Assembly: GCA_965229705.1 (NCBI GenBank) | Contig: OZ245922.1 | Coordinates: 570,001-602,000 of the forward strand | Direction: 5' to 3' | Source: Candidatus Saccharimonadota bacterium | GTDB lineage: Bacteria > Patescibacteriota > Gracilibacteria > BD1-5 > UBA6164 | DNA: 32,000 nucleotides | Shown here: piece after piece, positions 1 through 32,000 of the stretch | Numbering within the stretch: the first letter of the stretch is position 1 | How the letters are laid out: each line of letters opens with the position of its first letter | Notes under the pieces: model-generated | Databases searched by the model: none | What the model was told of the DNA's origin: nothing | What the model saw: the letters and a program-made list of their open reading frames with translations, nothing else | Program-made: the position numbers and the translations under genes

Positions 1-95
1 CGAGCCATCTCTCCTTTGGAAAAGGAGAGAAAAAAAGGAGTTTTTCAGAGATTCCTTAAAGAATATAATTTTTATCTTTATAAACACTTTGTAGT

Positions 96-794
96 ATGTA
101 TAGAACTTTTTTGAAAAAAACTCCAAAGACTCAGGGTTTTACTCTGGTAGAACTAATCACGGTAGTAACAATCCTCGCTGTACTCTCTGCTATAGGATTT
201 GTCTCTTTTTCTGGGTATCTCGCAGGAGTCAGAGATACCAATAGACTGTCACAGATCACATCTATATATGACTGACTGGAACTTTATTCTACAAAGAATG
301 ATCTGCCTATGCCTGATGACGCTGTAGAGATACAGGACGGAACCAGTCTCTTATGATATCAAGGAAATATTGGAGCAAATATTCTCGATATCCTCGACTT
401 TAGTCGAGGAGGTGTTGATCCCAAAGATGATTCATATTTTGTGTATTATCTCTCTGCAGATAAGAATGATTTTCAACTTATGGCGTTTCTCGAGGAAGAA
501 CAAAACGTCCCAACCGTATTTTTTCCTCAGGCATATGCTAAAGACTATAGTAATCTTTATCCAGTCGTATTTGGAGAAAAGCTTGGAATACTCCTTGATG
601 AGACAACGAAGACTCCTGTCCATGAGATAGAGGCAGTCAAGACGGCTGGAGCGTTAGATTTAGATGGAAGTACAGAGAGTTATACTGCCTACTTTAAAAA
701 TGATGATACCGCAACGGATACAGGAGAAAATCTATGAGAGACGATAGAGGAGGAGAGAGAGGAAGGGGCGAGTACTTCTGACAGTATCGAGTAG
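96..794 (+). CDS. Type IV pilin-like protein, copy 1, 0-frame segment (prepilin leader, G|FTLVE cleavage/methylation motif, hydrophobic helix, globular part)
   Basis: ATG at 96. Translation MYRTFLKKTPKTQGFTLVELITVVTILAVLSAIGFVSFSGYLAGVRDT... In-frame TGA at 273, 354 and 735; the first two align with GGT/GGA in copy 2. The frame ends at TAG 792-794. Confidence 0.75.
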
Positions 795-1551
795 TTCAAC
801 TACTGCTTCTACTGCGCCTACTGATTGGAGAGCTCAAGATCCTAATTGTGACAGAGCAGATGTGACTATCTGAACACAGACGTGGGCATGATGTAACTCA
901 ACTCTGGGAACATGATTTGAATGGTGACAAACAGATGCGGATGTAGGGACAAATAATTATAGTGGATCGGTAGGTTCTTCTCAAGGTTGCTACAACTATA
1001 ACGGAAGTACTTCTTGAGTAGCTTGTACCAAGTGAGATATAACGATGGCGAGTACCTCTAAAGCCAATGCTTGGTTTACCGGAACGAATAATAATGGAGA
1101 TACTGCCGTAGATAATATATGGGGAAAGTTCTATACTTGGGATTCTCTCGATACGGATAATGATAACGATATAGATGCAGCTGATACCAATCTTGTATGT
1201 TGAGTGGGATACCATGTACCAAGTGAACTCGAATGGGAAACACTCGAAGAATACTTGAATGGATCAGCTTGTAGAACTTCATATAATAGTTACCAGTGTG
1301 ACTGACAGTGATGGAAGTACCACTCAACGACTAATAGTGATAGCAGTATTGCCGAACTCCTACAGATTCCTTTGAGTGGTCAGCGTACTAATAACACATT
1401 CTATCATCGTGGGAACTATGGGTATCTATGGTCTAGTACGGTAAATGGATCTAAGGCTTATAGGAGAGATTTTTTTTATAATAGTACCAACGTCAATAGT
1501 AACGATGTTACACAATCGAGTTGATATTCAGTCAGGTGTATCAAGGATTAG
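793..1551 (+). CDS. FISUMP-type (Fibrobacter succinogenes major paralogous, TIGR02145-like) domain, copy 1, in the +1 frame relative to 96-794
   Basis: The +1 frame is open from 748 and has no ATG at its 5' end. Translation ...DWRAQDPNCDRADVTIGTQTWAGCN...VCGVGYHVPSELEWETLEEYL...GYLWSSTVNGSKAY...SGYSVRCIKD, stop TAG 1549-1551. It is most simply read as the C-terminal part of the pilin gene after a +1 shift. Confidence 0.7.
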
Positions 1552-1560
1552 GGATTTTTG

Positions 1561-1592
1561 AACGCCGGGGTGTAGCCTGGGGTTGTTTTTTT
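1561..1592 (+). terminator. Putative intrinsic terminator after pilin-FISUMP copy 1
   Basis: aacgccgggg-tgta-gcctggggtt imperfect GC stem followed by gttttttt, 10 nt after the stop. Confidence 0.45.
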
Positions 1593-1715
1593 AAGAAGAA
1601 CTATATTCACACACAAGATTCTTTCTTGAGTCAACGAAAAAAACTCTTGTTCTATTGTATTTTCGTGAAAAAGAAGTATTTTTCTCTTGGAAAATACTTT
1701 CTTAATTATTTCTTT

Positions 1716-2408
1716 ATGAAGCCATCTTTCTTAAAAAAAACTCAGGGTTTTACTCTGGTAGAACTGATCACGGTAGTGACTATCCTTGCTGTACTTGCAG
1801 CTATAGGATTTGTCTCTTTTTCTGGTTATCTCGCAGGAGTACGAGATACCAATAGACTTTCTCAACTTACATCTATCTATGACGGTTTAGAGCTCTACGC
1901 GACAAAGTATGATCTGCCTATGCCTGATGATGCTGTAGAGATACAAGACGGATCGAGTCTCTTAGGATACCAAGGAAATATAGGAGCAAATATCCTCGAT
2001 ATCCTCGACTTTAGTCGAGGAGGTGTTGATCCCAAAGATGATTCATATTTTGTATATTATCTCTCTGCAGATAAAAGTGATTTTCAGCTTATGGCGTTTC
2101 TCGAGGAAGAACAAAATGTTCCAACGGTATTTTTTCCTCAGGCATATGCCGATAAAGACTATAGTAATCTTTATCCAGTCGTATTTGGAGAAAAGCTTGG
2201 AATACTCCTTGATGAGACAACGAAGACTCCTGTCCATGAGATAGAGGCAGTCAAGACGGCTGGAGCGTTAGATTTAGATGGAAGTACAGAGAGTTATACT
2301 GCCTACTTTAAAAATGATGATACCGCAACGGATACAGGAGAAAATCTATGAGAGACGATAGAGGAGGAGAGAGAGGAAGGGGCGAGTACTTCTGACAGTA
2401 TCGAGTAG
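1716..2408 (+). CDS. Type IV pilin-like protein, copy 2, 0-frame segment
   Basis: ATG at 1716. Translation MKPSFLKKTQGFTLVELITVVTILAVLAAIGFVSFSGYLAGVRDT... Reads through TGA 2349 and stops at TAG 2406-2408. The junction sequence is identical to copy 1. Confidence 0.75.
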
Positions 2409-3168
2409 TTCAACTACTGCTTCTACTGCGCCTACTGATTGGAGAGCTCAAGATCCTAATTGTGACAGAGCAGATGTGACTATCTGAACACAGACGTGGG
2501 CATGATGTAACTCGACGCTAGGAGCATGACTTGAGTGGTGACAAACAGATGCGGATATAGGGACGAATAACTATAGTGGAACTATATACTCTTCTCAAGG
2601 TTGTTATGATTATAATGGAAACTACATAGATACAAGTAACTGTACTGCATGAGATATAACGATGGCGAGTACCTCTAAAGCTAATGACTGGTTTACTGGA
2701 ACGAATAATAATGGAGATACTGCCGTAGATAATATATGGGGAAAGTTCTATACTTGGGATTCTCTCGATACAGATAATGATAATGATATAGACGCAGATG
2801 ATACCAATCTTGTATGTTGAGTGGGATACCATGTACCAAGTGAACTCGAATGGGAAACACTCGAAGAATACTTGAATGGATCAGCTTGTAGAACTTCATA
2901 TAATAGTTACCAGTGTGACTGACAGTGATGGAAGTACCACTCAACGACTAATAGTGATAGCAGTATTGCCGAACTCCTACAGATTCCTTTGAGTGGTCAG
3001 CGTACTAATAACACATTCTATCATCGTGGGAACTATGGGTATCTATGGTCTAGTACGGTAAATGGATCTAAGGCTTATAGGAGAGATTTTTTTTATAATA
3101 GTACCAACGTCAATAGTAACGATGTTACACAATCGAGTTGATATTCAGTCAGGTGTATAAAGGATTAG
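2407..3168 (+). CDS. FISUMP-type domain, copy 2, +1 frame
   Basis: Same architecture as 793-1551. The diverged patch (..GTIYSSQGCYDYNGNYIDTSNCTAGD..) keeps the frame open. Ends ...GYSVRCIKD with TAG 3166-3168. Confidence 0.7.
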
Positions 3169-3181
3169 GGATTTTTGAACG

Positions 3182-3210
3182 CCGGGGTGTAGCCCGGGAT
3201 TGTTTTTTTT
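3182..3210 (+). terminator. Putative intrinsic terminator after copy 2
   Basis: ccggg-gtgtag-cccgg stem followed by a T8 run. Confidence 0.4.
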
Positions 3211-3331
3211 GAGAAGAGCTATATTCATACACTACAGTCTTTGCTGAGTCAAGCAAAAATCCTGTAAGTCATTGCGTTTTCCACAAAAGGAAGTATTTTC
3301 CTCTTGAGAAATACTTCTTTAACATTTCTTT

Positions 3332-4153
3332 ATGAAGCCATCTTTCTGTAAAAACACTCAGGCCTTCACTTTCGTAGAACTCATCACCGTTATCACGATA
3401 TTAGTAGTCCTCTCGGCTATAGGATTTGTCTCTTTTTCTGGATATCTCGTATGAGTCAGAGATACAAGCAGACTCTCCCAGCTCTCCTCTCTCTATGATG
3501 GACTCGAGATTTCTCGAACAAGTTATAGTGTTCCTATGCCTGATGACGCCCTAGAAATACGAGATGGAAATACCCTCTTGTGATATCAATGAGTAGCTGG
3601 GAAAAGCGTTCTCAACTCACTGGGATTTACTAAATGATGAGTCGATCCAAAAGATGATTCTTTCTATATTTACTATCTCTCAAATACCAAAAGAGAGTTT
3701 CAGTTAATGGGATTTCTCGAAGAAGAAGAAAATGTCCCAATAGTATCCCTCCCTCAAGCATACGCAAAAGACTATTCGTCTCTCTTCCCTGTAGTATTTT
3801 GAAGGATACTATGAATCTTGTTAGACGAATCAACACAAACACCTATGCACGAAATAGAGTCTGGTGATCTCGATCTCGATGGAGACAACGATACATATAC
3901 TGCCTATTTTGAAAATGATGATATCGTAACAGATACTGGTGATGATCTTGCAGATATTATTACAGACAGGAGAACTACCACAGTAAATACTTCTTCTAGT
4001 GGTTCTTCTGGAGGTGGTTCTTCTAGCTCTTCTAGTAGTTCCAGTTCTAACCGTTATCCATGATGTGATATGGATAATATTACCGTATGAAGTTATACTA
4101 TAGCTGCGTGTAATGTATGATCGAGTACTGCAGGAACATGAACTAGTTCTTAA
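3332..4153 (+). CDS. Type IV pilin-like protein, copy 3: pilin N-terminus, Ser/Gly-rich linker and the first ~30 residues of the FISUMP-type domain in one frame
   Basis: ATG at 3332. Translation MKPSFCKNTQAFTFVELITVITILVVLSAIGFVSFSGYLVGVRDTS... ...SSSGSSGGGSSSSSSSSSSNRYPGCDMDNITVGSYTIAACNVGSSTAGTGTSS, then TAA 4151-4153. Many in-frame TGA align with GGA in copies 1/2 (for example 3452 vs 1836). Confidence 0.75.
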
Positions 4154-4637
4154 TGGAGATTATATCCAGTTTTGAAAATCAGATACGACCGTGACAAACG
4201 CAAATTTTAATCTTCATGATTGGAAATCCCCAGGATGATCAGATAAAGGTTCTGCAAATGATTGGGGAGTATATAATAATACAAAAGATAGTGCAACTTT
4301 TGCAAACTCCAGCACTGCAGATCGAGCAAAAATGCAAGGTCCGTGCGCGAGTGGATACCATGTCCCAACGAGAAAAGAGTGGGTTGATGCTCACTCAGCA
4401 GGTTGATGGTGAAGTAACGGTACGAATATGATGAACGCTCTTTATTTACCAAAAGCATGACAGAAAGACTTAACAAGCTCAATGAGTGAGGAGTGAAGCA
4501 CTTGATACTATCGATCTTCCTCACCAAATGGAAGCTATTCTCATATACTCAGTATAAAATCTTCTGGTATTTCTTTAGATGATGAAAAGAGCCTCAGATA
4601 CTTTACTTGGTCAGTTCGATGTTTTAAAGATAACTAA
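4152..4637 (+). CDS. Remainder of the FISUMP-type domain of copy 3, +1 frame
   Basis: Translation NGDYIQFGKSDTTVTNANFNLHDWKSPGGSDKGSANDWGVYNN...CASGYHVPTRKEWVDAHSAGGWGSNG...YYRSSSPNGSYSH...WSVRCFKDN, stop TAA 4635-4637. The domain is split by the frame change at 4151. Confidence 0.7.
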
Positions 4638-4805: not shown

Positions 4806-7229
4806 ATGCAAGAAATTTTTATCAGTATTATCAGTGTATGAGTCATACTCTATGGCTTATTATTTGTGATTCGAAAAAAAGCCTATTATACAAGAACGCT
4901 TGAGACTATCTTTTTGCGAGTGATGCTCCCAAAAAAAGAAAGTGACCTCGATACAAAAAAAGATACCTCAAAAGATTTTAAGGAAATGGTATCTCTCATG
5001 GAACAACTCCTCTCTTCCCTCAAAGCTACCTACTCACACAAAATTATCAAACGCATTCTCGGTCAAGATACTCTTTCCCTTGAATATATTGCTCATGAAA
5101 ATGAAATATTTTTTTATGTTACCTGTAGCAAACACTATAAGAAACTCATAGAAAAACAAATACACGGTTTTTATCCTGATGCGATTATCGAAGAAACAAA
5201 AGAAATAAATATTTTTGAGTGAAGAAAAGCGTTTTCTACCACCTATCTCAACACAGTAAAAAACTTTCCTTATCCTATCAAGACATACCAAAAACTCGAA
5301 AGTGATCCTATCAATAATATTGCTGGAGCATTTTCACGACTCGAAGATGATCAATCAGCCGCGATACAAATACTCCTGAAACCCATAGGAGATGACTGGC
5401 AAAATAAATCTGCAAAGATATCTAGTAGTATCATGAAGTCAAAATCCTGATACCTCACGCTTAATCCTCTCAAAATACTTATCTGACTCTTTGAAATACT
5501 TTTTCAAAGCTCAGAAAAAGACAACTCTCCAGAAGAAAATAACTCCTCAGCTCTCACGCAAGAACGAGCAAAAACCGTAGATGAAAAAGGTGATAAAACT
5601 GGATACAAAGCTATTATCAGAGTCATCACTACTGGAAATAGTGAGCAAGACACTCAAACAGAACTCAAAAATATTATCTCTAGTTTTTCACAGTTTTCTT
5701 ATCCAGATTTTAACAAGTTTACCTATACTCTCCGGCATTCTCAAAATTCTCTCATAAAAAACTATATTTATAGATACTTCACCAAACCTTTTTGGCTCAA
5801 GAAAATGATACTCAATACCGAAGAGATCGCTTCTCTCTTTCATTTTCCTCATATCAAGTACAACGAAACACCCGAGATAAAATGGCAAAACTTTAAGGTG
5901 ATCAAGGCTCCACATAATATTCCCAAAGAGTGAATCATGCTCGGACATAATGTTCATAGATGAGTCAAAAAAGAGATACGCATTAAAACCGAAGATCGTC
6001 TCCGACATATGTACGTTATCGGACAAACAGGAACGGGGAAATCAACAATTATGCTCTCTATGGCAAAACAAGACTTTTACTCTTGAGATGGTGTTGCGAT
6101 TATGGATCCTCATGGAGACCTCATCAAAGATGTACTTCCATGGATACCTCGAGAAAGAGCTGATGATGTGATAGTCTTTGATCCCTCTGATGAAGAAAGA
6201 CCTATCGGTCTAAATCTCCTTGAAGCAGAACCAGAAGAACGTGATATGGTCGCGCAGGATGCAAATAATATGATGATCAAACTTTTCTGAAATGAGATTT
6301 TTGGTCCCAGACTCCAAGACTATTTTCTCAATGGATGTCTGACGCTCATGGAGTACCCGCAATGAGGAGCTCTTACAGATATTATTCGTCTCTTTACTGA
6401 TGATGATTTCCAAAAAGATCATGTTCGTAATGTTAAAAATCCTATTGTAAAAGCTTGGTGGGAAAAAACATTTGCCAATATGGGACAACGAGAAAAACAA
6501 GAGATTATCCCCTACTTTGCGGCAAAATTTTCAGGATTTATTACCAATAAAATGATGCGAAATATTATCGGACAAACAAAAAGCTCTTTTAATATCACCG
6601 ACTGTATGCAGAGTAATAAGATCCTGCTACTCAATCTCTCAAAAGGTCTTGTATGAGACCTCAACTCAAAACTCTTAGGAATGATCATCGTCAGTAAGAT
6701 ACAAACTGCAGCAATGCAAAGACAACGAATGACGAAACAAGAAAGACAAGACTTCTTCCTCTATATCGATGAGTTTCAAAACTATGTCACTCCGAGTATT
6801 GAGTCGATACTTTCCGAGGCTCGAAAATATCGCCTTGGTCTGGTACTTGCACATCAGTATCTTGGTCAACTTGAGCAATCTGACGCACTTACAAAATCGA
6901 GTCTCGATCTCAAAAAGGCAATTTTCGGAAATGTGGGAACCGTGATGAGTTATAAAATATGACCTGAAGATGGAGAGTTTATGGCAAAATATTTTCAGCC
7001 AAAAGTTTCTGATGCTGATCTCATAAATATGGATAAGTTTAAATGAGTTATGAAACTTGCTATTGATAACCAACCAACAACTCCCTTCTCTATTATTCCT
7101 GAAAATCCGTATCTTGATGCATGAGATCCAAAAATTGCCAAAGCTCTCATAGAACTCTCAAGACTCAAGTATGGGAGAGATAAAGTATTTGTGAGTAAAG
7201 AAATCGAATATCGCATATGAGTCATGTAG
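4806..7229 (+). CDS. VirD4/TraG/TraD-family (type IV secretion coupling protein-like) P-loop ATPase with N-terminal TM helix
   Basis: 807 codons, uninterrupted with TGA=Gly (checked codon by codon over 5220-6104). N-terminal helix ISIISVGVILYGLLFVI. Walker A VIGQTGTGKST, IMDPHGDL, Walker B-like FFLYIDEFQNY, and LVLAHQYLGQL (TraG-D_C-like). Stop TAG 7227-7229. Confidence 0.8.
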
Positions 7230-7840
7230 CACACCAAGAACTCAGAGAAAAGATTATTGCATACTTTCCTGCTGAGTCGCTCTCCTACTTCCCGGAAAAT
7301 ACGCTGGAGTATCTCCTCAGCGGAGAGATTATTTTTGGTCACTTGATAGAGTGAGAAAATATAGATAGTAGCGCTATGATTTTTGAATACCAAAAAGCTC
7401 TTGATGAAATGCTGGAACTGTATGTTGTTCAACCTTTTCGTCATGAGTTTCGACTTCAGTATTCTTGAGGTATTCCTATACATAATACTGCTTCTCATCT
7501 TGAAAAGTCTCTCTGTCTTGTGGTAGAAAAAAACTATCGTCTGAGTTTTGGGAGGTTTTATGAGGTTCTAGGGCGTATAAGTGAGATATCCAAAAATATA
7601 TGAGTGTATGAAAGTTGACTCAGAGACTTTCTCACAGTATGAACTTTAGAAAAAATACTTGTAAAAAGCCATTTTTGAAAACATCTTGCATCTCTGATAG
7701 AGAGCTGAGTTATGAATGAAAAAAGGCACTCATGAGTCTTGAGTTTTGATGAAGCTCTGAAAGCAAGAAAAAGTATATGTGGAAATTTTGAGAATCCAGA
7801 TTCTCTCTTATACTTGCTCGCAAGTACGCAGATACTATAA
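7217..7840 (+). CDS. Hypothetical protein (207 aa), start overlaps the coupling-ATPase stop by 13 nt
   Basis: ATG at 7217, TAA at 7838-7840, open with TGA=Gly. No recognisable motif. The 167-aa antisense ORF in the track (6995-7498) is rejected in favour of this frame. Confidence 0.55.
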
Positions 7841-7903
7841 CATAGTGCTATCTTCTTGAAAAACTGCTTCTATCCAGTGAAAATATACTCTTAATGTATT
7901 ACT

Positions 7904-8347
7904 ATGAAAATCCTTCTTTTTTTCCCTGCTATTGCCTACCTCGCACTTCTCATCATCAATCTTGAGATATTTTCTGCAAGCACAGAGATAAACTTTTTCT
8001 GGCTTTTGAGTTTCCAGATACCAGTGGTAATATTTATCTCTCTTTTTTTTATTCTTTATATATTGCTTATTTGGGCAGGATTTAACTTTTCACATGTATT
8101 TTCAAATATAAAAACTCGCAAACTCGAAAAAGAGGTGTTTGATCTAAAAACAAAGCTCCTAAACCGTCAGTGAGAACTCGTGAAGGATATAGAAGAAGTA
8201 TTCTCAAAAAAGCTCAGTGACTTTAAGACTGAGTCTGATAAAAAGCTCGAACTCACCAAAAAAGAAACAACAAAAATTGTTTCTCAAATGGAATATCAGT
8301 TTCAAAGTCTCAAAGAAAAGATGCAAGAACTCTGAAAGAAGAAGTAG
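7904..8347 (+). CDS. Small membrane protein with two N-terminal TM helices and a C-terminal charged coiled-coil (LapA/DUF1049-like topology)
   Basis: ATG at 7904, reads through TGA at 8171 and 8333, stops at TAG 8345-8347. Translation MKILLFFPAIAYLALLIINLE...ILLIWAGFNF... followed by a K/E-rich tail. Confidence 0.65.
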
Positions 8348-8483
8348 TCACCTCAAGAACCTCTGATAAATAGAAAAATACTGCGTAGGAAATAAGTATC
8401 AAAAATAACTCTAGGTTTTATACTCTAGGATTCACATTCAATACATATCTTGAGAAAAGCAAAAATACTTTTTCAGAGATTTT

Positions 8484-8729
8484 TTAATTTTGATGGTTAT
8501 CAATATCAAATATCTTGAGTACTCACTTATCCAACTTACATAAAGCCCGGAACTGTTTATTTATCCTAAAGTAGTAAATATTTTCCTTTTTAGGTTTCCT
8601 GAGTTTAAAGTCTGACCTTTTATAGTCTCAAGATATAATAAATTTTTTTGCCTTATAAAACTGACCTAACAACTGTCTCTTTTTCAGAAATTCCAGAGTA
8701 TCATCTGCAATAAGTACTCTCTCTATCAT
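8484..8729 (-). CDS. RelE/ParE-superfamily-like toxin (81 aa), putative
   Basis: Translation MIERVLIADDTLEFLKKRQLLGQFYKAKKFIISGDYKRSDFKLRKPKKENIYYFRINKQFRALCKLDKGVLKIFDIDNHQN. The ..YYFRIN.QFRA......L.IF.I.NH tail resembles RelE/ParE toxins. Its start overlaps the upstream small gene. Confidence 0.55.
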
Positions 8730-8929
8730 TGCAAATCAACAAAATTAAGAGTATCTATATTCTTAAGCCTTTTTTTTGACGATACAGATAAGTCATCAAC
8801 TCATATATGAAATAACTCTATCTGATCTTCTCATAACTCTTTATGAAGAAACTCCAAAAATTTCATCTGTATTTCGTATGATGAATACTTATCTACTATT
8901 TCAGGATGATCTACTGTTATAACTGTCAT
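8723..8929 (-). CDS. Putative antitoxin (68 aa) upstream of and overlapping the toxin gene
   Basis: ATG at 8929-8927, stop TAG 8725-8723, with a 7-nt overlap on the toxin ATG (caATGAtag). The call rests on size and arrangement only. Confidence 0.45.
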
Positions 8930-9017
8930 GGCTATGATGATATTTTTTTTAAAAAAAAATCAATAAAAAAAGGCTCTTTTCTATATAATAGAGAAATATC
9001 CTCAACATAATAAAACT

Positions 9018-9680: not shown

Positions 9681-9684
9681 GTGT

Positions 9685-10632: not shown

Positions 10633-10667
10633 TATTTACATATTTATAAATTATTTTTTAATATACT

Positions 10668-21150: not shown

Positions 21151-23511
21151 TTACTCATCAAAAAATGGTGGTGGTGTCTGCTGGAGTTTTGGATCATATT
21201 CAATAATGACTGGAAAGCCCTTATCCTCAGGAGCTACTCATAGTGACGAATTTCCACCATTTGCTGGTATTTTTGGAGTGAGATTTCCATCATCCCCGTC
21301 ATGATCATAGAGGAAATATCTTCTCAAGTAGTTGAGGTCATAGGCTTGAGCCTCATTTCTATCTGAACAATCAACATAATGAGGACATTCTATAGGAGTG
21401 CTTCGAGATCCTCAAAGAGTATTCTCGCTAAAGAGTGCTCCATATATATATAACTGATTTGCTATCTGACTTGCTGGAAGAGTCGTATAATCTATAGCAT
21501 TTTCTCCATCCAGACTCGTCGCAACAACCCTATCAGTATACAGTACTGCATGTATATCTGTCACATTTGGATGAATATATATGTTTCATCAAAGAACGAT
21601 GAGTCCTAAAATACCATCTCCATCAGCATTACGTATATTATCAGTAATAAAGAGATTCCCATTTTCAACAAAGATTGTTTTCTCTCCCTGAATATTTGTT
21701 GCAGCATTCAGAGTGACTGTTTTTCCTCACATTTCCCCAAAATAGAGGAGTGTATCAGACCAAAGTGAATGAGCTTGCAAACCATTATCATCCCAAGATT
21801 CTGCACGAAGATTGGTACTCATAACAGTTCTTCCTCCTTGCGTTTTAGGAGTCACACCACGTACAACACTATATATTTTTTGGGCTATATCCCTACGAAA
21901 AATTGATTTTTCTCTCTCTCCAAAAACCCGAAGATCATCTTCAAATTGTCATTCTACAATTTCTTTTGTTTTCTGTGAACTGGTATTTCAGATGATACGA
22001 ACTGATACTTGTGTATTTTCTACATCTTCAAAAATATCGTGATATGCTGTTTTTCCTATGATATCATGTGGATACGTCACCTCTTTCCCACCTATTATAT
22101 AGCGAACAATAGAGGCAAGAAATAGTTTGGCATCACTCGGAACGAGATCAATATCTGTTCTTTGAGAAGTAAAATCATGACTTCCTATAAAATCTGTATC
22201 TGTATAAAATGCTGTTCATAAACTTGTATCTTTTACGACTTCTCTACTATTCACAAGAAATTCTATATCATCTTCTACTTTCTGAGTATCTGCACCAAAC
22301 TCAAAATAGCCTGATTGCTGCGTTGCTCCTGAACCATTTATATCTAACTGTGAGTTTTGTATTCCTCATTCAAGAAATCATTGCGTGATAATTTCTCATG
22401 AAAATTCTGTCGTATATAAAGGGGCAAATCGAAGAGAGTCTCCATCATTTGCGTAAGGGTAAAAATCATCTTCCACCGGTGAGCTCGAACCATCACCACT
22501 CGCGATAGAGGTGTTTGCCGTAATTTTATATTTGAGTGAATGTATCTTTGCGCTTCCAGGGACAAGAGGATCACTCAGTGACGTTGGACTGTACACAAAC
22601 ATATCTATTTCATAACTATCATCTCAAAGTGACTTGTAAGGAATATTTGTCATATTCGTATCTCCAATAGGAAAAGGAATATTGGTATCTCCAATGAAAA
22701 TAGCACTATCAGATCCCGTATTCGTATGCTGATTGAGTCGGAGATCATTGTCTATACTCATATCAAAATTTACCTTTCTCCCAATACCAGGAGCGTCAAC
22801 AATAGCGTTCCCATATATATCTTCAAGTTCTATACCGATATTTTTTTCTGTCCCATCAGCAGGAGAGTTACTTGTGAGATCGCTGGTATTTATGGTTTTT
22901 GTAATAGTATTCACGGTGTTGGCATATACATAGTATGTATACTCTCGAGGAAATCATGAAACACAATTCCCTGCCTTGTCGCATACTCTATTGATTCTGA
23001 GTGTGTATTTTCTGTTTCACTGTGCATTTCTCTCATTATCTACTCGTGACATATTGAGAAAAAAACCTGTTTTTGTTGAGTTAAGTGAAACTGATCTCAT
23101 ACTTCCAGGATTATTATAATCCTCTATCTGAATACTGACATTTGAACCTGATCATCATGAAGTCATATTGCTAATAGGAATAAAGTAGGAATTATTTGCG
23201 AGGATATTTCAGCCAAGACTTGTATTCATACTTGGTGGTGTCCCATCCCAATACAGACATCTCAGTCTTCATGATTGTGACACATTTGTCCGTTGAGTCT
23301 CAGGAGAAAGTGTTGATGAGCTGTTATTATTTGCAACACGACGAGGATCTGTACCATCACGACCATTACTACGGTCTGTATAACAGTTTGTGACTCCCGA
23401 GTTTGATGACCAAGAAGATTGCCCTACATTTTGATACCATCTTGCATCTGCGTAAGACACGGAAAAAAAGAAAAAAAGAAAAAAAAGAAGACAAAATATT
23501 CATTTTTTCAT
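21151..23511 (-). CDS. Large secreted hypothetical protein (786 aa)
   Basis: ATG at 23511-23509, stop TAA 21153-21151. I scanned the reading frame codon by codon across 21154-22410 and 22915-23271 and found no TAA/TAG; about 30 in-frame TGA. The remaining stretch, 22411-22914, is covered by in-frame pieces of the supplied ORF track. N-terminus MKKGIFCLLFFLFFFFSVSYA. C-terminus ...LYIYGALFSENTLGGSRSTPIECPHYVDCSDRNEAQAYDLNYLRRY...PVIIEYDPKLQQTPPPFFDE. No family recognised. Confidence 0.75.
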
Positions 23512-23618
23512 AATATTATAAGAAAAAGAAATAATATATTTACTCCCATTACATCATACTTTTATTAGTATTGCAAATTTTTGTAGTTTCTATTCACTTC
23601 CCTAAAGTGTTGTTTTGA

Positions 23619-23662
23619 TGTAAGAAACTCTAGGGTTGTTTACACTTTTGGATAATCTGTAC
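23619..23662 (+). repeat. 44-bp IS481-type terminal inverted repeat (left end of the IS remnant)
   Basis: TGTAAGAAACTCTAGGGTTGTTTACACTTTTGGATAATCTGTAC is the exact reverse complement of 10361-10404. Confidence 0.8.
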
Positions 23663-23968
23663 AGCAGAATATTTTAGAAGTTAAACATAAAGGAAATGAA
23701 TATACATAAACGAACAAGGCTCACTGAAATGCAAAGAAAAGATATATGGGAGAAATATAAAAATGGTACAAGGGTGAGTAGCCTCTCAGAAATATATCTC
23801 ACTTCCCGAGTCACGATATACAAAGTACTTTCTCGAGCTCGCAGACAAGAATTTAGACCAAGAAATTCTACAAATCATAAATACAGAACTCTTGAATGGT
23901 GACTCAAAAGATTGTGAAAGATAGAAAGAAAGATAGTTGAGAAGAAAAATAGAGAGGCTCAGAGATAA
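23619..23968 (+). mobile_element. Truncated IS481-family-like insertion sequence: terminal repeat plus a 90-codon N-terminal (HTH) transposase fragment (ORF 23696-23968)
   Basis: Translation MNIHKRTRLTEMQRKDIWEKYKNGTRVSSLSEIYLTSRVTIYKVLSRARRQEF.. resembles the MN.HK.ARLT...R N-terminus of IS481-type transposases. No DDE catalytic region follows. Confidence 0.6.
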
Positions 23969-24261
23969 TCAAGATTGTCTGTCCCTTTTATGAGGTCTCC
24001 TTCTTGATAATTTGTCAGATCAACCGTACTCGTATCCACATTGATTGCTGTATAGATTGTATCTTGTTTCAAAGACAACTCTTGATCAACATAGAGAAAA
24101 TCAACCTTAGTATCAATGTAGGCTACCAATTCATTCCATTTGGTAAAGCTGAGGATATCCCCATCTTCAGCGTCAAGACCTATCCAGGCAGAAACATGCA
24201 TAGCTCAGATACTCAGCGCTATCATGCTCAGAATCACAAAGAAAATATTCTTCAGGTACAT
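23959..24261 (-). pseudogene. 3'-truncated paralog of the shared N-terminal module of the propeller-protein family (signal peptide + WIGL.AEDGDILSFTKWNEL module only)
   Basis: Translation MYLKNIFFVILSMIALSIGAMHVSAWIGLDAEDGDILSFTKWNELVAYIDTKVDFLYVDQELSLKQD...NLDYL. Homology to the two full genes stops at about 23960, where the IS fragment ends. With TGA=Gly the frame runs on antisense through the IS remnant to TAA 23676-23674. Confidence 0.65.
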
Positions 24262-24301
24262 AAATAAGGAATAATAAGAATATATAGCTCCTCAGTAATA
24301 T

Positions 24302-24336
24302 ATAAAAAGTCAGGAAAAATAAAATTTTTTTCCTGA
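24302..24336 (-). terminator. Terminator after the LVIVD-repeat gene
   Basis: tcaggaaaaa-taaaatt-tttttcctga, a 10-bp stem, followed on the minus strand by actttttata. Confidence 0.55.
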
Positions 24337-24416
24337 TTTTAATACATCATAAATACAATAAAAATATATCGTAAAATAATCAATATTTTTCCGCTTACTG
24401 AATCATAGATTATATC

Positions 24417-26234
24417 CTACTCATAAGTCACACCTAAATCAAAAATCTGAAATCTATTATAGGTACTATCTCCAAATACTATCAGATATAGTTCATCATT
24501 TGTCTCCACAATCTCTAAACCAGTATTAGCATAAGTACTCGTAACAGAGCCTTGAGTTTTTTCTATGACATTAGTGGGAAATGTTGCGTCATATATTTCC
24601 CAATTATCACTGGAACTATAAACAGGCACAAACACTCTTCCCTTTGAGATATATGGTCTCACATGCTGCGAGATGCTTGTGTACCCAAAAGTACTCTGTA
24701 AAACAGGGTTTGTCGGATCAGTAATATCTAGCAAGCAAAACTGTCTTTTACTGGATGAATATACTATAGCGTAGGTATTGGACTCTGTTTTATATGTTCC
24801 TACTCCCATTGGTTGTCTACAATTTGTAGTATCCACAAACTGACTTTTTCTGGTATAGGTTTCATCTCCAAGCTCATAAACATCTATATAGTTTCTATTG
24901 GAATAACTTGCTGTACCCACAAAGTAGGGCTTACCATCATGCTCATACATCGAAACTCCTTGGAGTCTCCCATAAGACACTCCTATCTTTTGGTTGTATG
25001 TCAGTGAACCATTTTGATACTTATAAATAAAGAAATAATCATAGCTATCGTTAGAACTTTCAGCAGCGACAATATAGGTCACATCTCCAACAGTGACGGA
25101 ACTAATCTTTCGTATGTCATCTAGTTGATCATCTTGGTAAGAAGTTTTGTATCTGAGAGATGAAGGATTAGTAATATCATAAATCGTCAGTTTTTCATTA
25201 AATGAATCATTATCCATAAATAGCCCATATACATTACCGCTGGCATCTTCAAATACATCTAAGTATCTAACCATATCTAAGTAATCAACACTTGTCTCAA
25301 CATCTTTTAAAACAGAGTTTGCAGGATCGGTGACATCCGTAACCATGATTCTATCATGATTTGTACTCATAGAGAGTATATAGTTTTTGTCTCCGACAGT
25401 ATACGCCTTAAATCCACTCGCATCACCGAGGTTACCATTTCGAAAGTACCCGATATCCGTCACATCAAACTCGATATTTCCCATCGAAAATATTTCTGCA
25501 AACATCGAGACCGTGCTTGGAAAATGATTGGCAAATGTTGTAGAGATTCTATCAGCTCTATCTGCAAGAGATGTTATAACTATTGTCGCGGAATTTGGAT
25601 CATTGATCGTTACTTCTTGAGAGTAGTCGCTTTCTGATAAATCTAGTTTCATATTTGGCTGAAAGAGCTCTCCAGTGAGGTTTACTGTTCTTGTGTCATT
25701 GGCTCCATAAAACTGGAGATCTATCAGGTTATTCTCACCGTCATCAAGATAGGGTTTTACAGAAACTTCTTCAGCGATATCGTCAACTTCTATTTTATTA
25801 TAAAACAAACTCGTGATTTCCGTTGATGTCAGATAATTGACAAAGTTATCCCATATAGAGGTAGTCTCTGTATCTACATAGGTGATATCTGCTTTGAGAT
25901 CAAGGCTCGCATCCATTTCTGCCTTGGTATAATACTCAGTCAGATCTGCTCAGCCTATAACCGGTGTAAGTATTTTTTGAGAACTGCTATCAAGCTCTAC
26001 GGTATAGTCAAGATTCTCCTTACTCTTGATGAGGTCCCCGAGCTGATAGTTTGTCAGATCAACCGTACTCGTATCGACATTGATCGCGGTATAAATCTTA
26101 TCTTGCTTCAAGGATACCTGCTGATCAACATAGAGAAAATCAACCTTAGTATCAATGTAGTCGATGAGCTCATTCCATTTGGTAAAACTGAGAATATCTC
26201 CGTCTTCTGCTTCGAGACCTATCCAGGCAAACAT
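24417..26234 (-). CDS. Surface protein: shared N-terminal module + stalk-like segment + LVIVD-repeat beta-propeller
   Basis: Reads MFAWIGLEAEDGDILSFTKWNELIDYIDTKVDFLYVDQQ...ILTPVIGGADLTEYYTKAEMDASLDLKAD..., then repeats such as IMVTDVTDPANSVL, LTIYDITNPSSLRY, FCLLDITDPTNPVL, WEIYDATFPTNVI. Stop TAG 24419-24417. The expected signal peptide (ATG 26301, MNYIKNFFLLLLSLTALTIGAVH) is out of frame because 2 nt are missing relative to the paralogs. Confidence 0.8.
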
Positions 26235-26343
26235 GAACGGCTCAAATAGTCAGTGCTGTAAGGCTCAAAAGGAGCAGGAAAAAGTTTTTTATATAATTCA
26301 TAGCAAAAAATAAAAGTGGTATATGTATGTATCGTAAGATATG

Positions 26344-28209
26344 CTACTCAAAAGCAAAGCTTGTCACAGGTTTAGCATATAAAGAATTTGTTGTTGTTCC
26401 ATCTCCCAATTGTCCATAATCATTTCTTCCCCAGCAATATACTGAGGAATCTTCTAAGATAGCACAGCCTCCATTTAGACCTGCAGATATTTTTACGGCT
26501 GTAGTGATATTCGTTCCATCCTCAAACTGCACATTTACCGGATCACTGACTCGGGTCGTGGTGCTTCCATTTCCAAGTTGTCCACTAGAGCCTTTTCCCC
26601 ATACCTTTACTTCTCCATTTGACTGAAGGGCTATTGAGTGGTTTTCTCCAAGCGCAATATCAATAGGATCAACCAGTGGCACGGTATACCAGCTCGATAC
26701 TCGCTCTGTTGTATTGCTATCCTTCCCCGTTTGATAGTTAGAATTATACCCTGCACACTTTACCTGAGCAGAGGTTGTGAGGATACAGGTATGATAGCCA
26801 TATCCACTATCAACTTTTGCTATGCTTCTTGTGATATATGTTGGGCTGGAGAGTTTTTGGTCTGTGGTTCCTCTTCCAAATCTTCCATTATCCCAACCCC
26901 AACAATAGAGATATCCACTCGTAGTGATGTAGCACCCAGATCTTTGCGACATAGAGAGTTGCTGTATACTTGTGGACATTGATGAAATATATACTGGTGT
27001 GTTTTGCTGACTGGTCTTACCTGGAATATCATAGTAACTCGAACTATATCCTGAACAATACACTTTTCCGTCTGAGTCTCTAATAGCACACATGGTATTG
27101 CTTCCAACATCAAAGTCTCTGATCAGTTCTCCATCGAGATATTCAGTATCAAATGTATCAACTATAGTACTTGAAGAAGTTTCTAAGCCAAAAATTCCGT
27201 TTACCCCCCTTCCCCACATACGAAGCTTCTTATCTGTTCCAAGAGCAAAAGCCGTATTATAAATCAATTGGAGTTTTGTCACATCTTTCACAGAAAATGC
27301 TGTCGGAGTGGTGATAGGTGAGCTCGTATCCCCTGGAGCAATCGCAAGTTGTGTATAATTGTTTTGTCCAGCACAATAGAGGTCTCCATTATACTTTTGA
27401 AAACAGTTGGAATATGTTCCAGACATAAGGTTTTCTGCAAATAAATCAACCGTTTGAAGAGTAATTTTTTTGCCATTTCACCAAGCTTCATGACCAGAAA
27501 ATGAATACTCAGAAGCAAAAACCTCCGTATCTGGAGCAGTAATATTTACGACAACCTCTGTGGGAGATTTTGAAATATATTCCACTACATATCCATCTGC
27601 CTCAAGACCTTCTAAAACATCAGCAGGAGTAAACCCAACTCCACTTATAGTAATACTTTTTGTTTCAGAAACCTTGAGCTGCTCGTCTATACTGCTGGTA
27701 AGATACGGATATACTTCTCTTGGTGGGGCAATGTAATTTCCCGTATCAGAGAGAAACTTGTCTCCTCCGCCATCTGTGATTATCTGTGAAGCATCTGCCT
27801 TGAGATCTAAGTAAGCATCTGTTTCTGCTTGTGTATAATACATTGACAAGTCAGTCCCTTCTATCACTGGCGTAAGTATCTTATTGGAACTAACATCTAA
27901 TTCCACCGTATAATCAAGCTTGTTTGTGTCTTTGATCAGATCTCCCTCTTGATAATTTGTGAGGTCAATATTCGCAATATCAACATCAATATCAGCGTAT
28001 ATCGTATCTTGTTTGAGGCTCAGTTGCTGATCAACATAGAGAAAATCAACCTTGGTATCAATATAGTCGATGAGCTCATTCCATTTGGTAAAACTGAGAA
28101 TATCTCCGTCTTCTGCTTCGAGACCTATCCAGGCAGAAACATGAACGGCTCAAATAGTCAGTGCTGTAAGGCTCAAAAAGAGCAGAAAGAAGTTTTTTAT
28201 GTGTTTCAT
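26344..28209 (-). CDS. Secreted surface protein: shared N-terminal module + stalk-like segment + RCC1-repeat beta-propeller
   Basis: Translation MKHIKNFFLLFLSLTALTIGAVHVSAWIGLEAEDGDILSFTKWNELIDYIDTKVDFLYVDQQ...YYTQAETDAYLDLKAD..., then RCC1-like repeats (LYCAGQNNYTQLA, MWGRGVNGIFG, LYCWGWDNGRFGRG, VKVWGKGSSGQLGNG, VYCWGRNDYGQLGDG). 621 aa, stop TAG 26346-26344. Confidence 0.85.
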
Positions 28210-28453
28210 TATAACAAATAAAGAAGTAATGTAGTATACTCATTTGAAAATCAAAAAACGATTCAAAGAAGAATGTATAGAAAAATACAAAAAAGTGAAA
28301 TTTTTTACAGATAATTTTTTCAGTTTTTTCTTGTATTTACAGAGGGAAAAATTGTCAGGAAAAAATAAGTTCAAAGGTCAATCTCATTTTCTTGAAAAAA
28401 TACTTCCCCATATGATATGCTACTGGTGTATATATTTTTAAACATTTGCAAAA

Positions 28454-29329
28454 ATGAAAAAAATCATCAGCTCTCTCCTCCTATGCACCTCTATGTTTAT
28501 TATATGTGGTGAAGGAATATTTCTAGGAGTTGCCAACGCCGAAAGTGTTGCACCAAACCTTTATACCAGATTTCCTGATAAAAATGATCTTATTCCATAC
28601 GGAGATTTTATCATACAGTACACTATAGATGATACCGACTCAGGTATAGATATTAGTTCTGATTCTCTTACTCTTCAGAAATGGGATGGAACTGCTTGGG
28701 GATCAGATATTCTTTCTGTTCATTTAGGAACAAAAGAAATCACTACAACTCTTGCAAAATATCCTGTAACAAATGTTGCATACGGAAAGTATCAAAAAAT
28801 ATTCTCTATTAGTGATAATGATGGAAATACTACTACCGTATCAACAATATTTTATGTTGATGCTCCAGAGTTTATTATCTCTGCACCAGAACTCGAAATA
28901 GGAACACTCACCTTTGATACACTCAAGGTTTCTGATCAAGAGCTTACCGTGACAGTAAAAACTGTCGGAGCAAAATTTGATGTTACCATGTTACAAAATA
29001 CCGACCTCTCTCTCACAAGTGATTACCGTATTCCTACATGGGACACTGACTCAGGTTTTTGATATACACAGGTCAGTAGCCCAAGTATCAGCGATATACA
29101 AAAAATAGAAGATGCAAATATCTGAAGTGAAGATACAAGCATCAATCAAGATGGAGAAAAGAATACCTATACCTATACGATAAAGTATGCTGCTCTCTTC
29201 TGAGATGATGAATACCTTGCAGGTTGAAACTATGAAGCAAGCATCAATTTTGATATTGATTTTGAATACCAAGATATAGACTCTCATTGTTGGCTTGACG
29301 GCGTAGCAACACTCTGATGTGATGTATAA
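28454..29329 (+). CDS. Secreted hypothetical protein (291 aa), beta-rich, first gene of the surface cluster
   Basis: Signal peptide MKKIISSLLLCTSMFIICGEGIFLGVANA. Reads through 5 TGA; stop TAA 29327-29329. The second half (ELEIGTLTFD...TVTVKTVG...) resembles the next gene. Confidence 0.7.
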
Positions 29330-29350
29330 TATGATATAAGAAAAAGCGCA

Positions 29351-29386
29351 AAATACTACTCTAAAATCTGGAGTAGTATTTTTTTT
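29351..29386 (+). terminator. Intrinsic terminator
   Basis: aaatactactc-taaaatctg-gagtagtattt followed by a T run. Confidence 0.7.
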
Positions 29387-29406
29387 AAAAAAAAGTATTC
29401 AGATTT

Positions 29407-29435
29407 TTGACAGCTCAAAAAAAGAATGCTACACT
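29407..29435 (+). promoter_or_regulatory. Sigma-70-like promoter candidate for 29490-30161
   Basis: TTGACA (29407-29412), a 17-nt spacer ending in TGc, then TACACT (29430-29435). Confidence 0.45.
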
Positions 29436-29441
29436 TATAGT

Positions 29442-29458
29442 AGTTGTGAATCACAACT
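29442..29458. promoter_or_regulatory. Perfect 17-bp palindrome (operator-like or leader hairpin) just downstream of the -10
   Basis: AGTTGTGA-A-TCACAACT. Confidence 0.4.
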
Positions 29459-29489
29459 TTACTTTATTTTTCTAACTTTTATAAAAGTT

Positions 29490-30161
29490 ATGAATACACA
29501 AACACAAAAAATCCTGGCAACTATGCTGATAATTGCAGGTGTGTTTTCATTTTCTTCTGCTTTTGCTGCTACAGAAATCGGTCAAGCAACAGTAACAGGA
29601 GATACTGCGGGAACATTTACAGGAAGTATACAGTGGGATGATAATCTCCCTGGTACAGCTACTGGTAGTGTTGAAAACATTGTCATTAAAGCGCAAGTAC
29701 TTCCAAGTCTTTCTATGGAAATCTCAGCTAGTGAGATTGACCTTGGAACACTCGTTGCTGGAACTGCTTCAACTGGAAGTCTTTCACTTGAAGTAGGAAC
29801 AAACGCTGTAAGTGGTATCACTGTTACAGCTCGATCTCAAACAGGAGGTCTTACAAACCAGAGTGATACAGATACTCAGATTAACTCTCTTACGACTGAC
29901 GGTCTTGCAGAAAGTTACACATGGGAATCAGCTCCAAACGCTACAAATGATTCTTCAAATAGTTCTTTTGCTGCTACAGGGCTCACAGCTCTTGAAGTAA
30001 ATGATGACACTACAGAACATACAGTATACTCTACAAATAAGCCAGAGTCTATTACTGATGTAAATGATGTTGTCTTCACTGTAAACGCTACTGCTGGAGC
30101 AGAAACTCCTGCAGGTGAGTACAGAGATCAAATCACATTTACTATTACTGGAAACTTCTAA
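29490..30161 (+). CDS. Secreted beta-sandwich surface/fibre subunit-like protein (WxL-domain-like, tentative)
   Basis: Uninterrupted 223-aa ORF even in the standard code. Signal peptide MNTQTQKILATMLIIAGVFSFSSAFA. Contains ..IDLGTLVAGTASTGSLSLEVGTNA.. and ends ..PAGEYRDQITFTITGNF. Confidence 0.75.
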   Translation: MNTQTQKILATMLIIAGVFSFSSAFAATEIGQATVTGDTAGTFTGSIQWDDNLPGTATGSVENIVIKAQVLPSLSMEISASEIDLGTLVAGTASTGSLSLEVGTNAVSGITVTARSQTGGLTNQSDTDTQINSLTTDGLAESYTWESAPNATNDSSNSSFAATGLTALEVNDDTTEHTVYSTNKPESITDVNDVVFTVNATAGAETPAGEYRDQITFTITGNF

Positions 30162-30180
30162 GTAATAAAACATTATCTAA

Positions 30181-30213
30181 AAAAGTCTCTTTTATTTTAA
30201 AAGAGACTTTTTT
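30181..30213 (+). terminator. Intrinsic terminator
   Basis: aaaagtctctttt-atttt-aaaagagactttt, a 13-bp stem, followed by a T run. Confidence 0.7.
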
Positions 30214-30284
30214 ATTTTCGCCTTTTCCCTGTATATATGTAGTAGAAAAAAGTGTATTTTGTTCCTTATTAAAGTTCTATAATT

Positions 30285-31964
30285 ATGAAAAGGTTTATAA
30301 GTCTTCTGATGCTCGCGTCTATATTTGCTATGAGTTCTCATGTTACGAACACCCATGCAAATATTAATTTTTGAGTCACTCCGATTAAGTATGAACTCGA
30401 GATGGATCCCGAAGAGTCTATCACGCTCACAGCATGAATACGAAACAACTCTCTCCAAGAGCGAACCATGACAACACTTTCGGCAGACTTCACTTCTGAT
30501 GGAACCAGTGGAACTCCAAGATTTATACGAGATAATTCTGAGATAAACCCCGATCAACATCTCGCAAGTTGGATAGAGATTAGTGAAGATCAACTGACAC
30601 TCGCCTCGTGAGAGTTTCAAGAGATAGAGTTCACTATTACCGTTCCTGAAGATGCAACTCCTGGAGGTCATTATGGTGCTGTACTGTTTCGCGTCGTAAA
30701 TAATACTGGTGGATGAGATGTAAAAGTAGATGTCGATTATGGAATACTCATCCTTGTAGATGTTTCTGGAGAACGAATTGTCGATGTCGTTATTGAGACT
30801 CCGACTGTGAGTAGTGGAAGCTCTAATTCTAGCAGTGATACTTCTACATCTTCTCAAAGTTCTAGTAGCTCTAGTACAAGCTCTTCAAGCTGATGAGGAT
30901 ACTCAAGTTATAAAAGAGAAAGATGAGACCAGCAAGGTTCACAAACTCCTCCGTCTCTTGATCTTGCTCGATATCAGGTATATTTCCCTCAAGAAGTCAG
31001 TCAGCCACAATATACTACTGAAGAAGGAGCTGAACCACTTGAAAGTGTTGTTCCTCCTCAAGTCGCGCAAGTTTCACAGGAGGAAGATACAGATTCTCAA
31101 AACCTTGAAGAAGCAGATGAAACCTCTGAGGAATACATCGAAAACCTGGCTCAAGATATTATAAACTCACTTGAAAATACTCAGGAAGATACCGAAGAAA
31201 ATACCGATATTGAAGTAGCTCAAGAGGAAGACTCTTCCCTACAAGAAGATATCCTCTCTTTTGATAACCAACCCCCTCTCGCAGAGGATACTACTAACAC
31301 TGTCTCTGATGATCAAAACACCAATCTCTGAGACGATACTGAGCAAGACTCTTCATTTGGAATTACTTTCTCTCTTCCGGTAGAAAACAAAGGAAATACC
31401 CATGTAAAACCTCAATGAAAGATTACTCTCAGAAATGAAGATGGTGAAGTCATTCGCGCGGTAGGAAAAGAAGTAGTAGCAAACTCTCTTGGAGCTATTG
31501 TTGATGAAAAAATAGTAGACTACATCCCTATCAATGATCAGTGAGGAAATGTTCTCCCTTTTTCTACTCGAGTGTTTAGTGCTGAGTGGAAAGGGTTTCC
31601 CTACAAGACCTATAATCAGTTTGGAGAACCTCAGATTAACTACTGGACTCCTGAAGAGTATTATGAAAAGTCTCGTACCGAGTCTGGAAATATCTATGTA
31701 AATTTTTGGGAAAAAGTGAGTAAAAAGGATATCCAAGCAAATATCTTTGCCGATTTTGAGCTATCGTATAAAGATGAGGAATGAAAAGATGTATGGTATG
31801 AATCAACACAGGTTTTCCCTATAGAATATACTGCTACCATCGTTGAAAATAATGAAAAAGTTCTCTACAGTCTTGCTGGGCTCGCGTTTGTGATGAGTAT
31901 TGCGATGATATTTGCTGTTTCTCAAGGAATAAGCGCTGTGTGAGGGCTGTTTATGAGGAAGTAG
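30285..31964 (+). CDS. Membrane-anchored surface protein: DUF916-like N-terminal domain, long Ser-rich/acidic linker, second beta domain, C-terminal TM anchor
   Basis: Translation MKRFISLLMLASIFAMSSHVTNTHANINFGVTPIKYELEMDPEESITLTAGIRNNS...ASWIEISEDQLTLASGEFQEIEFTITVPEDATPGGHYGAVLF... Ends ...LYSLAGLAFVMSIAMIFAV.., stop TAG 31962-31964. The frame was checked at both ends. The 221-aa antisense ORF and the 116-aa alternate-frame ORF in the track lie in the low-complexity linker. Confidence 0.75.
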
Positions 31965-32000
31965 GTATCTTGGTAGAATTATGCATATAGCCGTATCTGT

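Follow-up and report, generated by a model that had tools for sequence, protein, structure and literature searches.

Reading of UGA as glycine instead of stop was described for SR1/Absconditabacteria and Gracilibacteria by Campbell et al. 2013 and Rinke et al. 2013, as cited in PMC8629427. In a closed genome of the gracilibacterial group BD1-5 the genes were predicted with code 25, and prfB, the gene of release factor 2, was detected neither there nor in the other BD1-5 genomes available at the time (PMC6851277). Proteomics of another BD1-5 bacterium from an enrichment recovered 97 peptides unique to the glycine reading against 3 unique to the tryptophan reading (PMC4032931). For the cognate tRNA, tRNA-Gly(UCA), Shulgina & Eddy used the criterion G1:C72, C2:G71, G3:C70 and U73 (PMC8629427). 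Codetta predicted that CGA/CGG are read as Trp in some Absconditabacteria and possibly in some Gracilibacteria (PMC8629427). In this study, we analyzed a 32-kb stretch of chromosomal DNA (contig OZ245922.1, positions 570,001 to 602,000; hereafter the window, numbered from its first nucleotide) and read its UGA codons as glycine, according to NCBI translation table 25, with a probability of about 0.97. The source is a bacterium of Gracilibacteria type (Candidate Phyla Radiation/Patescibacteria), and we infer its exact placement within Gracilibacteria/Absconditabacteria.

A code of this kind is already known, as the preliminary description of the window had stated (PMC8629427, PMC4032931, PMC6851277), and the window departs from it in nothing found. 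It shares with table 25 the sense UGA at Gly positions, the identity set of the tRNA(UCA), UGG as Trp, and TAA and TAG as stops. Its G+C content of 36.6% lies within the range of 0.21-0.53 given in PMC8629427, and the named top homologues of its MtaB-like protein are all Candidatus Gracilibacteria bacterium. No difference in kind was seen. With the Absconditabacteria (SR1) variant the window has UGA = Gly and the rarity of CGG (9.7 per 10,000 codons) in common. In contrast to that variant, CGA is frequent in the window, at 77 per 10,000. A reassignment of CGA/CGG to Trp was considered and rejected: CGA falls on invariant Arg columns in RpoD (237 and 300), DnaG (191) and the MtaB-like protein (169, 175 and 311), and CGG has two informative columns, both R/K. 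Both codons still mean Arg, and the code is therefore plain table 25. Table 4, used by Mycoplasma/Spiroplasma and insect endosymbionts, has sense UGA, low G+C and the same ORF (open reading frame) map in common with the window, but UGA means Gly and not Trp here, and the identity features of the tRNA(UCA) are of Gly type.

Open reading frames with UGA as a sense codon

When TGA, TAA and TAG are all taken as stops, the longest stop-to-stop ORF in the window has 510 aa (amino acids). With only TAA and TAG as stops, 30 greedy non-overlapping ORFs cover 87% of the window. From this set 29 ORFs were kept; the antisense pick 29472-30173 (-) is spurious, the real gene at this place being 29490-30161 (+). 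The retained genes comprise 9013 codons with 195 in-frame TGAs (21.6 per 1000 codons), and they end with TAG (15) or TAA (14) and no other stop. Among the Gly codons TGA has a share of 30.5%, exceeded by GGA alone. The chance of finding 786 codons without TAA or TAG at the composition of the window is about 4e-10. Neither frameshifts nor in-frame TAA or TAG were found, and TGA is the sole interrupter of the genes. Under table 11, the longest TGA-free stretch in conserved genes such as DnaG, RpoD and RsmF is 45-148 aa.

These results bear out what had been noted from the letters of the window: nearly all of it (about 87%, 29 genes) resolves with TGA as Gly, and standard-code calls break the conserved genes into pieces. 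Two long ORFs had been singled out. The one of 786 aa at 21151-23511 exists and lies on the minus strand, and the one of 807 aa from 4806 also exists, with 828 aa when counted from its first ATG at 4743. All 13 coordinates given for individual codons proved exact, each with the TGA, or GGN glycine codon where so described, in its named context. Among them, TGAs were recovered at 9342 (LP-x-PSA), 12176 (SP-x-GKT), 13795 (IQ-x-GC), 14179 (QS-x-S), 15033 (GAV-x-N), 17655 (E-x-YMD) and 20402 (WWIRQ-x), where x is the TGA position.

Reading through TGA also yields 119 ORFs of at least 100 aa, which sum to 2.2 times the length of the window, and many of them are spurious. ORF length by itself is a weak criterion for genes under table 25. 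The antisense ORF 29472-30173 (-), 233 aa long, was rejected for its Cys/Ser-rich composition and because the opposite plus strand encodes, at 29490-30161, a protein with a signal peptide. Genes for 16S rRNA and ribosomal proteins are absent from the 32-kb window. The same holds for prfB, whose absence from the window is uninformative on the rest of the genome.

Glycine at UGA positions

The sense reading of UGA and its glycine meaning are directly supported by comparison with other bacteria. A scan with RpoD, with one genome per GTDB species, gave 80 loci. A relative with 70% identity (L001) was set apart, and the other 79 bacteria, with RpoD identity of 64% or less and many with dnaG next to rpoD, were compared. 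The column test used those 17 TGA columns of RpoD and DnaG in which 40 or more homologues were aligned. In this tabulation of residues opposite TGA, which the preliminary description had proposed, Gly dominates with a mean frequency of 0.51, compared with 0.67 where the window has GGA, 0.61 where it has GGT and 0.025 for the other codons. Gly columns are thus about 20-fold enriched at TGA positions, where the frequency of Trp is 0.0 and that of Cys 0.002. TGG columns have W at 1.0 in the other bacteria compared. A BLOSUM62-based likelihood, computed in the manner of Codetta and summed across columns, puts Gly first, 13.0 nats over Ser and 26.3 nats over Trp. Other departures from the standard code were indicated for five codons, each in 1-4 columns and by no more than 1 nat. 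Individual columns are as clear: in DnaG, Gly is found in 67/67 homologues at 17655, in 68/68 at 17799, and in 57/67, 52/67 and 50/67 at three more columns, and the RpoD columns 20624 and 20648 have G in 74/79 homologues each.

Solved structures agree with this picture. In the PDB homologues of RsmI, RsmF, MiaB/RimO and LspA, most TGA columns are Gly and none is Trp or Cys. RsmI was compared with 5hw4 (E. coli RsmI), which has G at five of six TGA columns, and the RsmF homologues have G at SP-x-GKT, DRM-x-V and A-x-FFVAKL. G is also present at GAV-x-N and FH-x-YV in the LspA homologues, and at QS-x-S and x-GKEV in solved MiaB/RimO. Among the TGAs that had been listed as lying on invariant glycines, one was overstated, IQ-x-GC of the MtaB-like protein (13795), where solved MiaB/RimO have R or D; within the lineage, this position is G or TGA in 118/118 orthologues.

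For matching to Pfam, each TGA was translated as X to avoid presuming a residue. Domains were matched end to end across the X-marked positions, including Radical_SAM, AMMECR1, UPF0102, TrwB/DUF87 and RCC1. The TP_methylase match of RsmI spans profile positions 1-211 of 212, the RsmB-F match 11-198 of 199, and the Peptidase_A8 match of LspA 2-141 of 142, all through TGAs. When G, X or W was placed at the TGAs, bit scores ranked G > X > W in 7/7 non-overlapping domains tested, with a summed difference between G and W of 85.6 bits. RsmB-F, for example, scored 170.0 (G), 157.0 (X) and 149.3 (W), and Peptidase_A8 104.0 (G), 94.5 (X) and 90.5 (W). NCBIfam equivalog or domain models were above cut-off for RsmI (TIGR00096, 260.9 bits), LspA, DnaG and the C-terminal domain of RpoD. 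The m5C methyltransferase is closest to the RsmF model and the radical SAM methylthiotransferase to the MtaB model, both below the equivalog cut-off.

Exchange between TGA and GGN codons was found inside the window and between the window and its relatives. Codon alignment of the pilin paralogues gave 2 + 7 pairs of TGA with GGA or GGT and one pair of TGA with GCA. The pairs noticed beforehand are among the former, namely 273 TGA/1884 GGT, 354 TGA/1965 GGA and 3452 TGA/1836 GGA, and in the motif VVF-x-..L-x also 3800 and 3812 TGA against GGA. One further pair, of TGA with GGG (25950 and 27856), connects two large surface-protein paralogues, which brings the in-window paralogues to 10 TGA-to-GGN pairs.

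DNA of three relatives was reached via homologues of the MtaB-like protein. One strain (L085), independently assembled, is collinear with window 6485-23617 at 96-98% nucleotide identity and keeps 120 of 122 aligned TGAs. The other two, L083 and L081, share synteny with the window, and their conserved genes encode proteins about 50-83% identical to its own. TGA of the window faces GGN in 26 codons of L083 and 23 of L081, and GGN of the window faces TGA in 21 and 38 codons, respectively. No TGG of the window faces TGA in either relative; conserved Trp residues are encoded by TGG, as had been argued against table 4. In the RpoD relative L001, five of nine window TGA positions are GGN.

All 120 best-ranking homologues of the MtaB-like protein belong to the recoded lineage, and many are translated with table 4. 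They cannot serve as independent standard-code columns and were therefore used to examine the mixing of G and W. In 118 lineage homologues, the GGN columns of the window and nine of its 14 TGA columns are almost purely G and 'W'. Among the remaining TGA columns, three are variable and non-Gly, that of aa 389 contains A and S as well, and the last falls in a gapped stretch. None of the six TGG columns contains G: W is present in 111-118 sequences at four of them, another has W and F (91/26), and the last is gapped, with D. The stored proteins for 13336-14721 (P0001) and 26344-28209 (P0121) in a public protein collection carry W at every TGA, i.e. they are table-4 translations, and many lineage homologues in the collection show the same artefact.

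Several points weigh against the glycine reading. The standard code of the 79 comparison genomes was taken from record titles. About one third of the aligned TGA columns are non-Gly in these bacteria: 20402 in RpoD, named beforehand as Ala in E. coli, is indeed Ala in 76/79, positions 20789 and 17088 are Asp, and others are variable. Since 20402 is GGG and 20789 is GGC in L001, these two are lineage-specific glycines and do not count against Gly. TGA faces TGG twice in each of the relatives of about 60% identity, L083 and L081, possibly by alignment noise. Finally, nucleotide 36 of the tRNA(UCA) is A, where canonical tRNA-Gly has C36, a reported identity element of glycyl-tRNA synthetase (GlyRS). 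With A36 instead of C36, charging by GlyRS is something we infer.

A tRNA with anticodon UCA and alternative meanings of UGA

The sole tRNA that ARAGORN found in the window has the anticodon UCA, and it was labelled SeC because of this anticodon and on no other ground. A local Rfam scan (10150-11100, 951 nt) matched the tRNA family RF00005 at 10880-10955 with 44.5 bits, compared with a gathering score of 29. With the gathering threshold applied to the whole window, Rfam had reported no family; in light of the local match, this blank is a miss by the fast filters, which lost a slightly unusual tRNA, and not absence. The sequence, GCGGGGG-UA-ACAU...GUGU-A-CUAAGG-CUUCAAC-CCUUGG-GUGU-GCCAG-UUCAAAC-CUGGU-CCCCCGC-U-CCA, has 76 nt before CCA, a 7-bp acceptor stem GCGGGGG/CCCCCGC, U73, a 10-nt D loop, the anticodon loop CUUCAAC and a short variable region. 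Either an additional nucleotide separates its D stem from the anticodon stem, or the latter has a sixth C:G pair. G1:C72, C2:G71, G3:C70 and U73 are all present, which is the full Gly identity set of PMC8629427. The tRNA and its Gly identity set had been reported beforehand at 10877-10955, to which we add the minus strand. The gene occupies a syntenic place in L081, L083 and L085, upstream of the same MscS-like gene, and 77 of its 79 positions are invariant across the relatives despite the 50-83% protein identity in L081/L083. In L083, an A:U pair of the anticodon stem is replaced by a compensatory G:C pair. From these features of its sequence, we read it as a putative tRNA-Gly(UCA).

UGA is a sense codon for glycine here, with UAA and UAG as the only stops and UGG remaining Trp. 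In the proposed mechanism, the dedicated tRNA(UCA) at 10880-10955 (-) would be the decoder, and the acceptor-stem and discriminator features seen by glycyl-tRNA synthetase, which it retains, would allow its charging with Gly before it pairs with UGA. Release factor 2 is expected to be absent, by analogy with published Gracilibacteria genomes, and this would leave no competitor at UGA.

The 3' end of the tRNA(UCA) gene recurs as a 22-nt direct repeat (TGGAGCGGGGGACCAGGTTTG, plus strand) at 10667-10688, compared with 10877-10897, 209 bp downstream of the gene. The repeat is also found in L085 (4170-4190) and is absent from L081 and L083. It looks like an att-type scar left by integration at the tRNA gene. 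As the source of the duplicated 3' end at 10667-10688, a tmRNA, permuted or not, was rejected, with support from neither ARAGORN nor Rfam (E <= 10).

Other meanings of UGA were weighed against glycine. Tryptophan, as in table 4 of the Mycoplasmatales and several insect endosymbionts, would leave the ORF boundaries identical to those of table 25; some pipeline evidently chose it, since W is stored at the TGAs of P0001 and P0121, and the TGA codons that face TGG twice in each of two relatives would also agree with it. However, Trp is at 0.0 in the 17 TGA columns and 26 nats below Gly, W scores below both X and G for each Pfam domain tested, and conserved Trp columns are TGG only, with no pairing to TGA in relatives. 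Moreover, the tRNA(UCA) has U73 and not the G73 expected of a Trp acceptor by the rule in PMC8629427. We regard the tryptophan reading as highly improbable. The ARAGORN label 'tRNA-SeC' would instead propose that UGA stands for selenocysteine (or cysteine), with a tRNA-Sec as its decoder. U73, C35 and A36 are also features of tRNA-Cys, which speaks for the same proposal. A total of 195 UGAs in 29 genes, or 2.1% of codons, is nevertheless far above any selenoproteome, and Cys has a frequency of 0.002 at TGA columns. Bacterial tRNA-Sec has an 8+5 architecture, a long extra arm and G73, and the tRNA(UCA) has none of these: its acceptor stem has 7 bp, its variable region is short and its discriminator is U73. 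It also fits the general tRNA model and carries the Gly pattern at acceptor pairs 1:72, 2:71 and 3:70. The chance of this reading is practically negligible.

Short ORFs under table 11 are also what a decaying genome would give, with UGA still a stop and the genes being pseudogenes, or the TGAs could be errors of sequencing or assembly. Against such decay or error stand the interruption of genes by TGA alone, without frameshift, TAA or TAG, the 120 of 122 TGAs kept in an independently assembled strain at 96-98% nucleotide identity, the roughly 20-fold enrichment of Gly columns at TGA, and the conserved cognate tRNA, and we give it as little credit as selenocysteine. A mixed or context-dependent UGA, Gly in most genes and a stop or avoided codon in some, would account for the uneven use of TGA among genes (chi-square, p = 1e-4 for heterogeneity in its share of Gly codons) and for three neighbouring surface-protein genes with 3 TGAs in 107 Gly codons, compared with 30.5% overall. 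But every gene ends with TAA or TAG, the TGAs of the TGA-poor genes are in frame within the ORF, and that at 25950 pairs with GGG at 27856. Codon bias or gene origin is a simpler account of low TGA use, and a mixed meaning is very unlikely, if somewhat less so than tryptophan.

Gene content and a TGA-poor surface-protein block

The features of the window are listed in Table 1. Its left end consists of three tandem modules of a pilin-like gene and a Fib_succ_major-domain gene, repeated at intervals of about 1.61 kb. The first two copies share 88-100% DNA identity; the third has diverged (71%) and contains 11 TGA codons, many more than the 3 and 1 of copies 1 and 2. The second pilin-like gene, 1716-2408 (+), is TGA-poor with one TGA in 18 Gly codons. 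In L085, an extra gene at 5337-5723 encodes a 128-aa SET-domain protein between the MscS-like gene and rsmF, and the window lacks it at the corresponding place (about 11807). The intergenic region 18569-18863 after dnaG contains two direct repeats, one of 85 nt (89% identical, spacing 210) and a perfect one of 42 nt (spacing 87), and it aligns poorly with L085.

Table 1. Features of the 32-kb window, with strand, number of in-frame TGAs and basis of assignment
Feature	Coordinates	Strand	In-frame TGA	Basis and remarks
Tandem module x3, type IV pilin-like gene + Fib_succ_major-domain gene	96-4637	+		Pfam N_methyl, Fib_succ_major
Pilin-like genes	96-794, 1716-2408, 3332-4153	+		Pfam N_methyl
Fib_succ_major-domain genes	1045-1551, 2662-3168, 4113-4637	+		Pfam Fib_succ_major
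TrwB/VirD4/HerA-like P-loop ATPase, 828 aa	4743-7229	+	15	Pfam TrwB_AAD_bind, DUF87
RsmI, 16S rRNA C1402 2'-O-methyltransferase	9018-9680	+	6	Pfam TP_methylase, TIGR00096
tRNA(UCA), encoded CCA end	10877-10955	-		ARAGORN; labelled SeC
RsmF/NOL1-NOP2-Sun family rRNA m5C methyltransferase	11807-13249	+	13	Pfam RsmB-F
MiaB/RimO-family radical SAM methylthiotransferase (MtaB-like)	13336-14721	+	14	Pfam Radical_SAM
LspA signal peptidase II	14706-15191	+	5	Pfam Peptidase_A8
AMMECR1-domain protein	15934-16467	+	3	Pfam; syntenic in L081, L083, L085
YraN/UPF0102	16483-16836	-	2	Pfam; syntenic in L081, L083, L085
DnaG primase	16896-18560	+	17	Every DnaG Pfam domain matched
RpoD/SigA primary sigma factor	19535-20923	+	12	Sigma-70 regions 1.1 to 4 matched
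Secreted protein, no family assigned, 786 aa	21151-23511	-	19	Orthologue in L085 92% identical, TGAs kept
Secreted/surface protein gene	24417-26234	-		TGA-poor cluster
RCC1-repeat gene	26344-28209	-		Pfam RCC1; TGA-poor cluster
Secreted/surface protein gene	28454-29329	+		Same cluster (24417-30161)
Secreted/surface protein gene, signal peptide	29490-30161	+		TGA-poor cluster

Collinearity with L085 ends at window 23617, and the surface-protein block beyond (about 23.6-30.2 kb) is strain-variable. A 51-nt inverted repeat, 94% complementary, is found at 10354-10404 and 23619-23669, with its arms 13.2 kb apart. The first arm lies in a long AT-rich intergenic region beside the tRNA gene, and the second at the end of L085 collinearity. 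The repeat may be a site of recombination or inversion, or a shared regulatory or terminator element.

Three tandem paralogues follow on the minus strand (23674-28209). All have a signal peptide, and their N-terminal region is conserved over about 100 aa (WIGLEAEDGDILSFTKWNEL...). Their C-terminal domains differ and include an LVIVD-like propeller and RCC1 repeats. The first of them, 23674-24261, has retained the N-terminal part alone, with low-quality sequence behind it, and is probably the remnant of a truncated copy. TGA is scarce among the Gly codons of this block: one of 32 in 24417-26234 (-), two of 55 in 26344-28209 (-) and none of 20 in 29490-30161 (+). The close homologues of the RCC1 protein are three relatives at 52-60% identity with no sign of TGA, and no close homologue beyond these three was found that could point to a standard-code donor of this TGA-poor gene. 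It is conceivable, though rather doubtful, that the block of about 23.6-30.2 kb is 'code-11-compatible' DNA that moves between standard and recoded bacteria (compare PMC10746230), or that selection acts against UGA in very highly expressed genes because of poor decoding by the tRNA(UCA).

The biology of this code is established, and the value of the finding for the window is practical, as each gene call in it hinges on the code. With UGA as Gly, table-11 calls are fragments, and table-4 calls put Trp at Gly sites. These sites make up about 2% of residues and are often conserved glycines of functional importance; this genome was translated with table 4 in at least one large public protein collection. 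Since read-through of TGA makes long spurious antisense ORFs too, long ORFs need a second check. Later readings of the window, including those of the pilin modules, the VirD4-like ATPase and the surface proteins, should take table 25.

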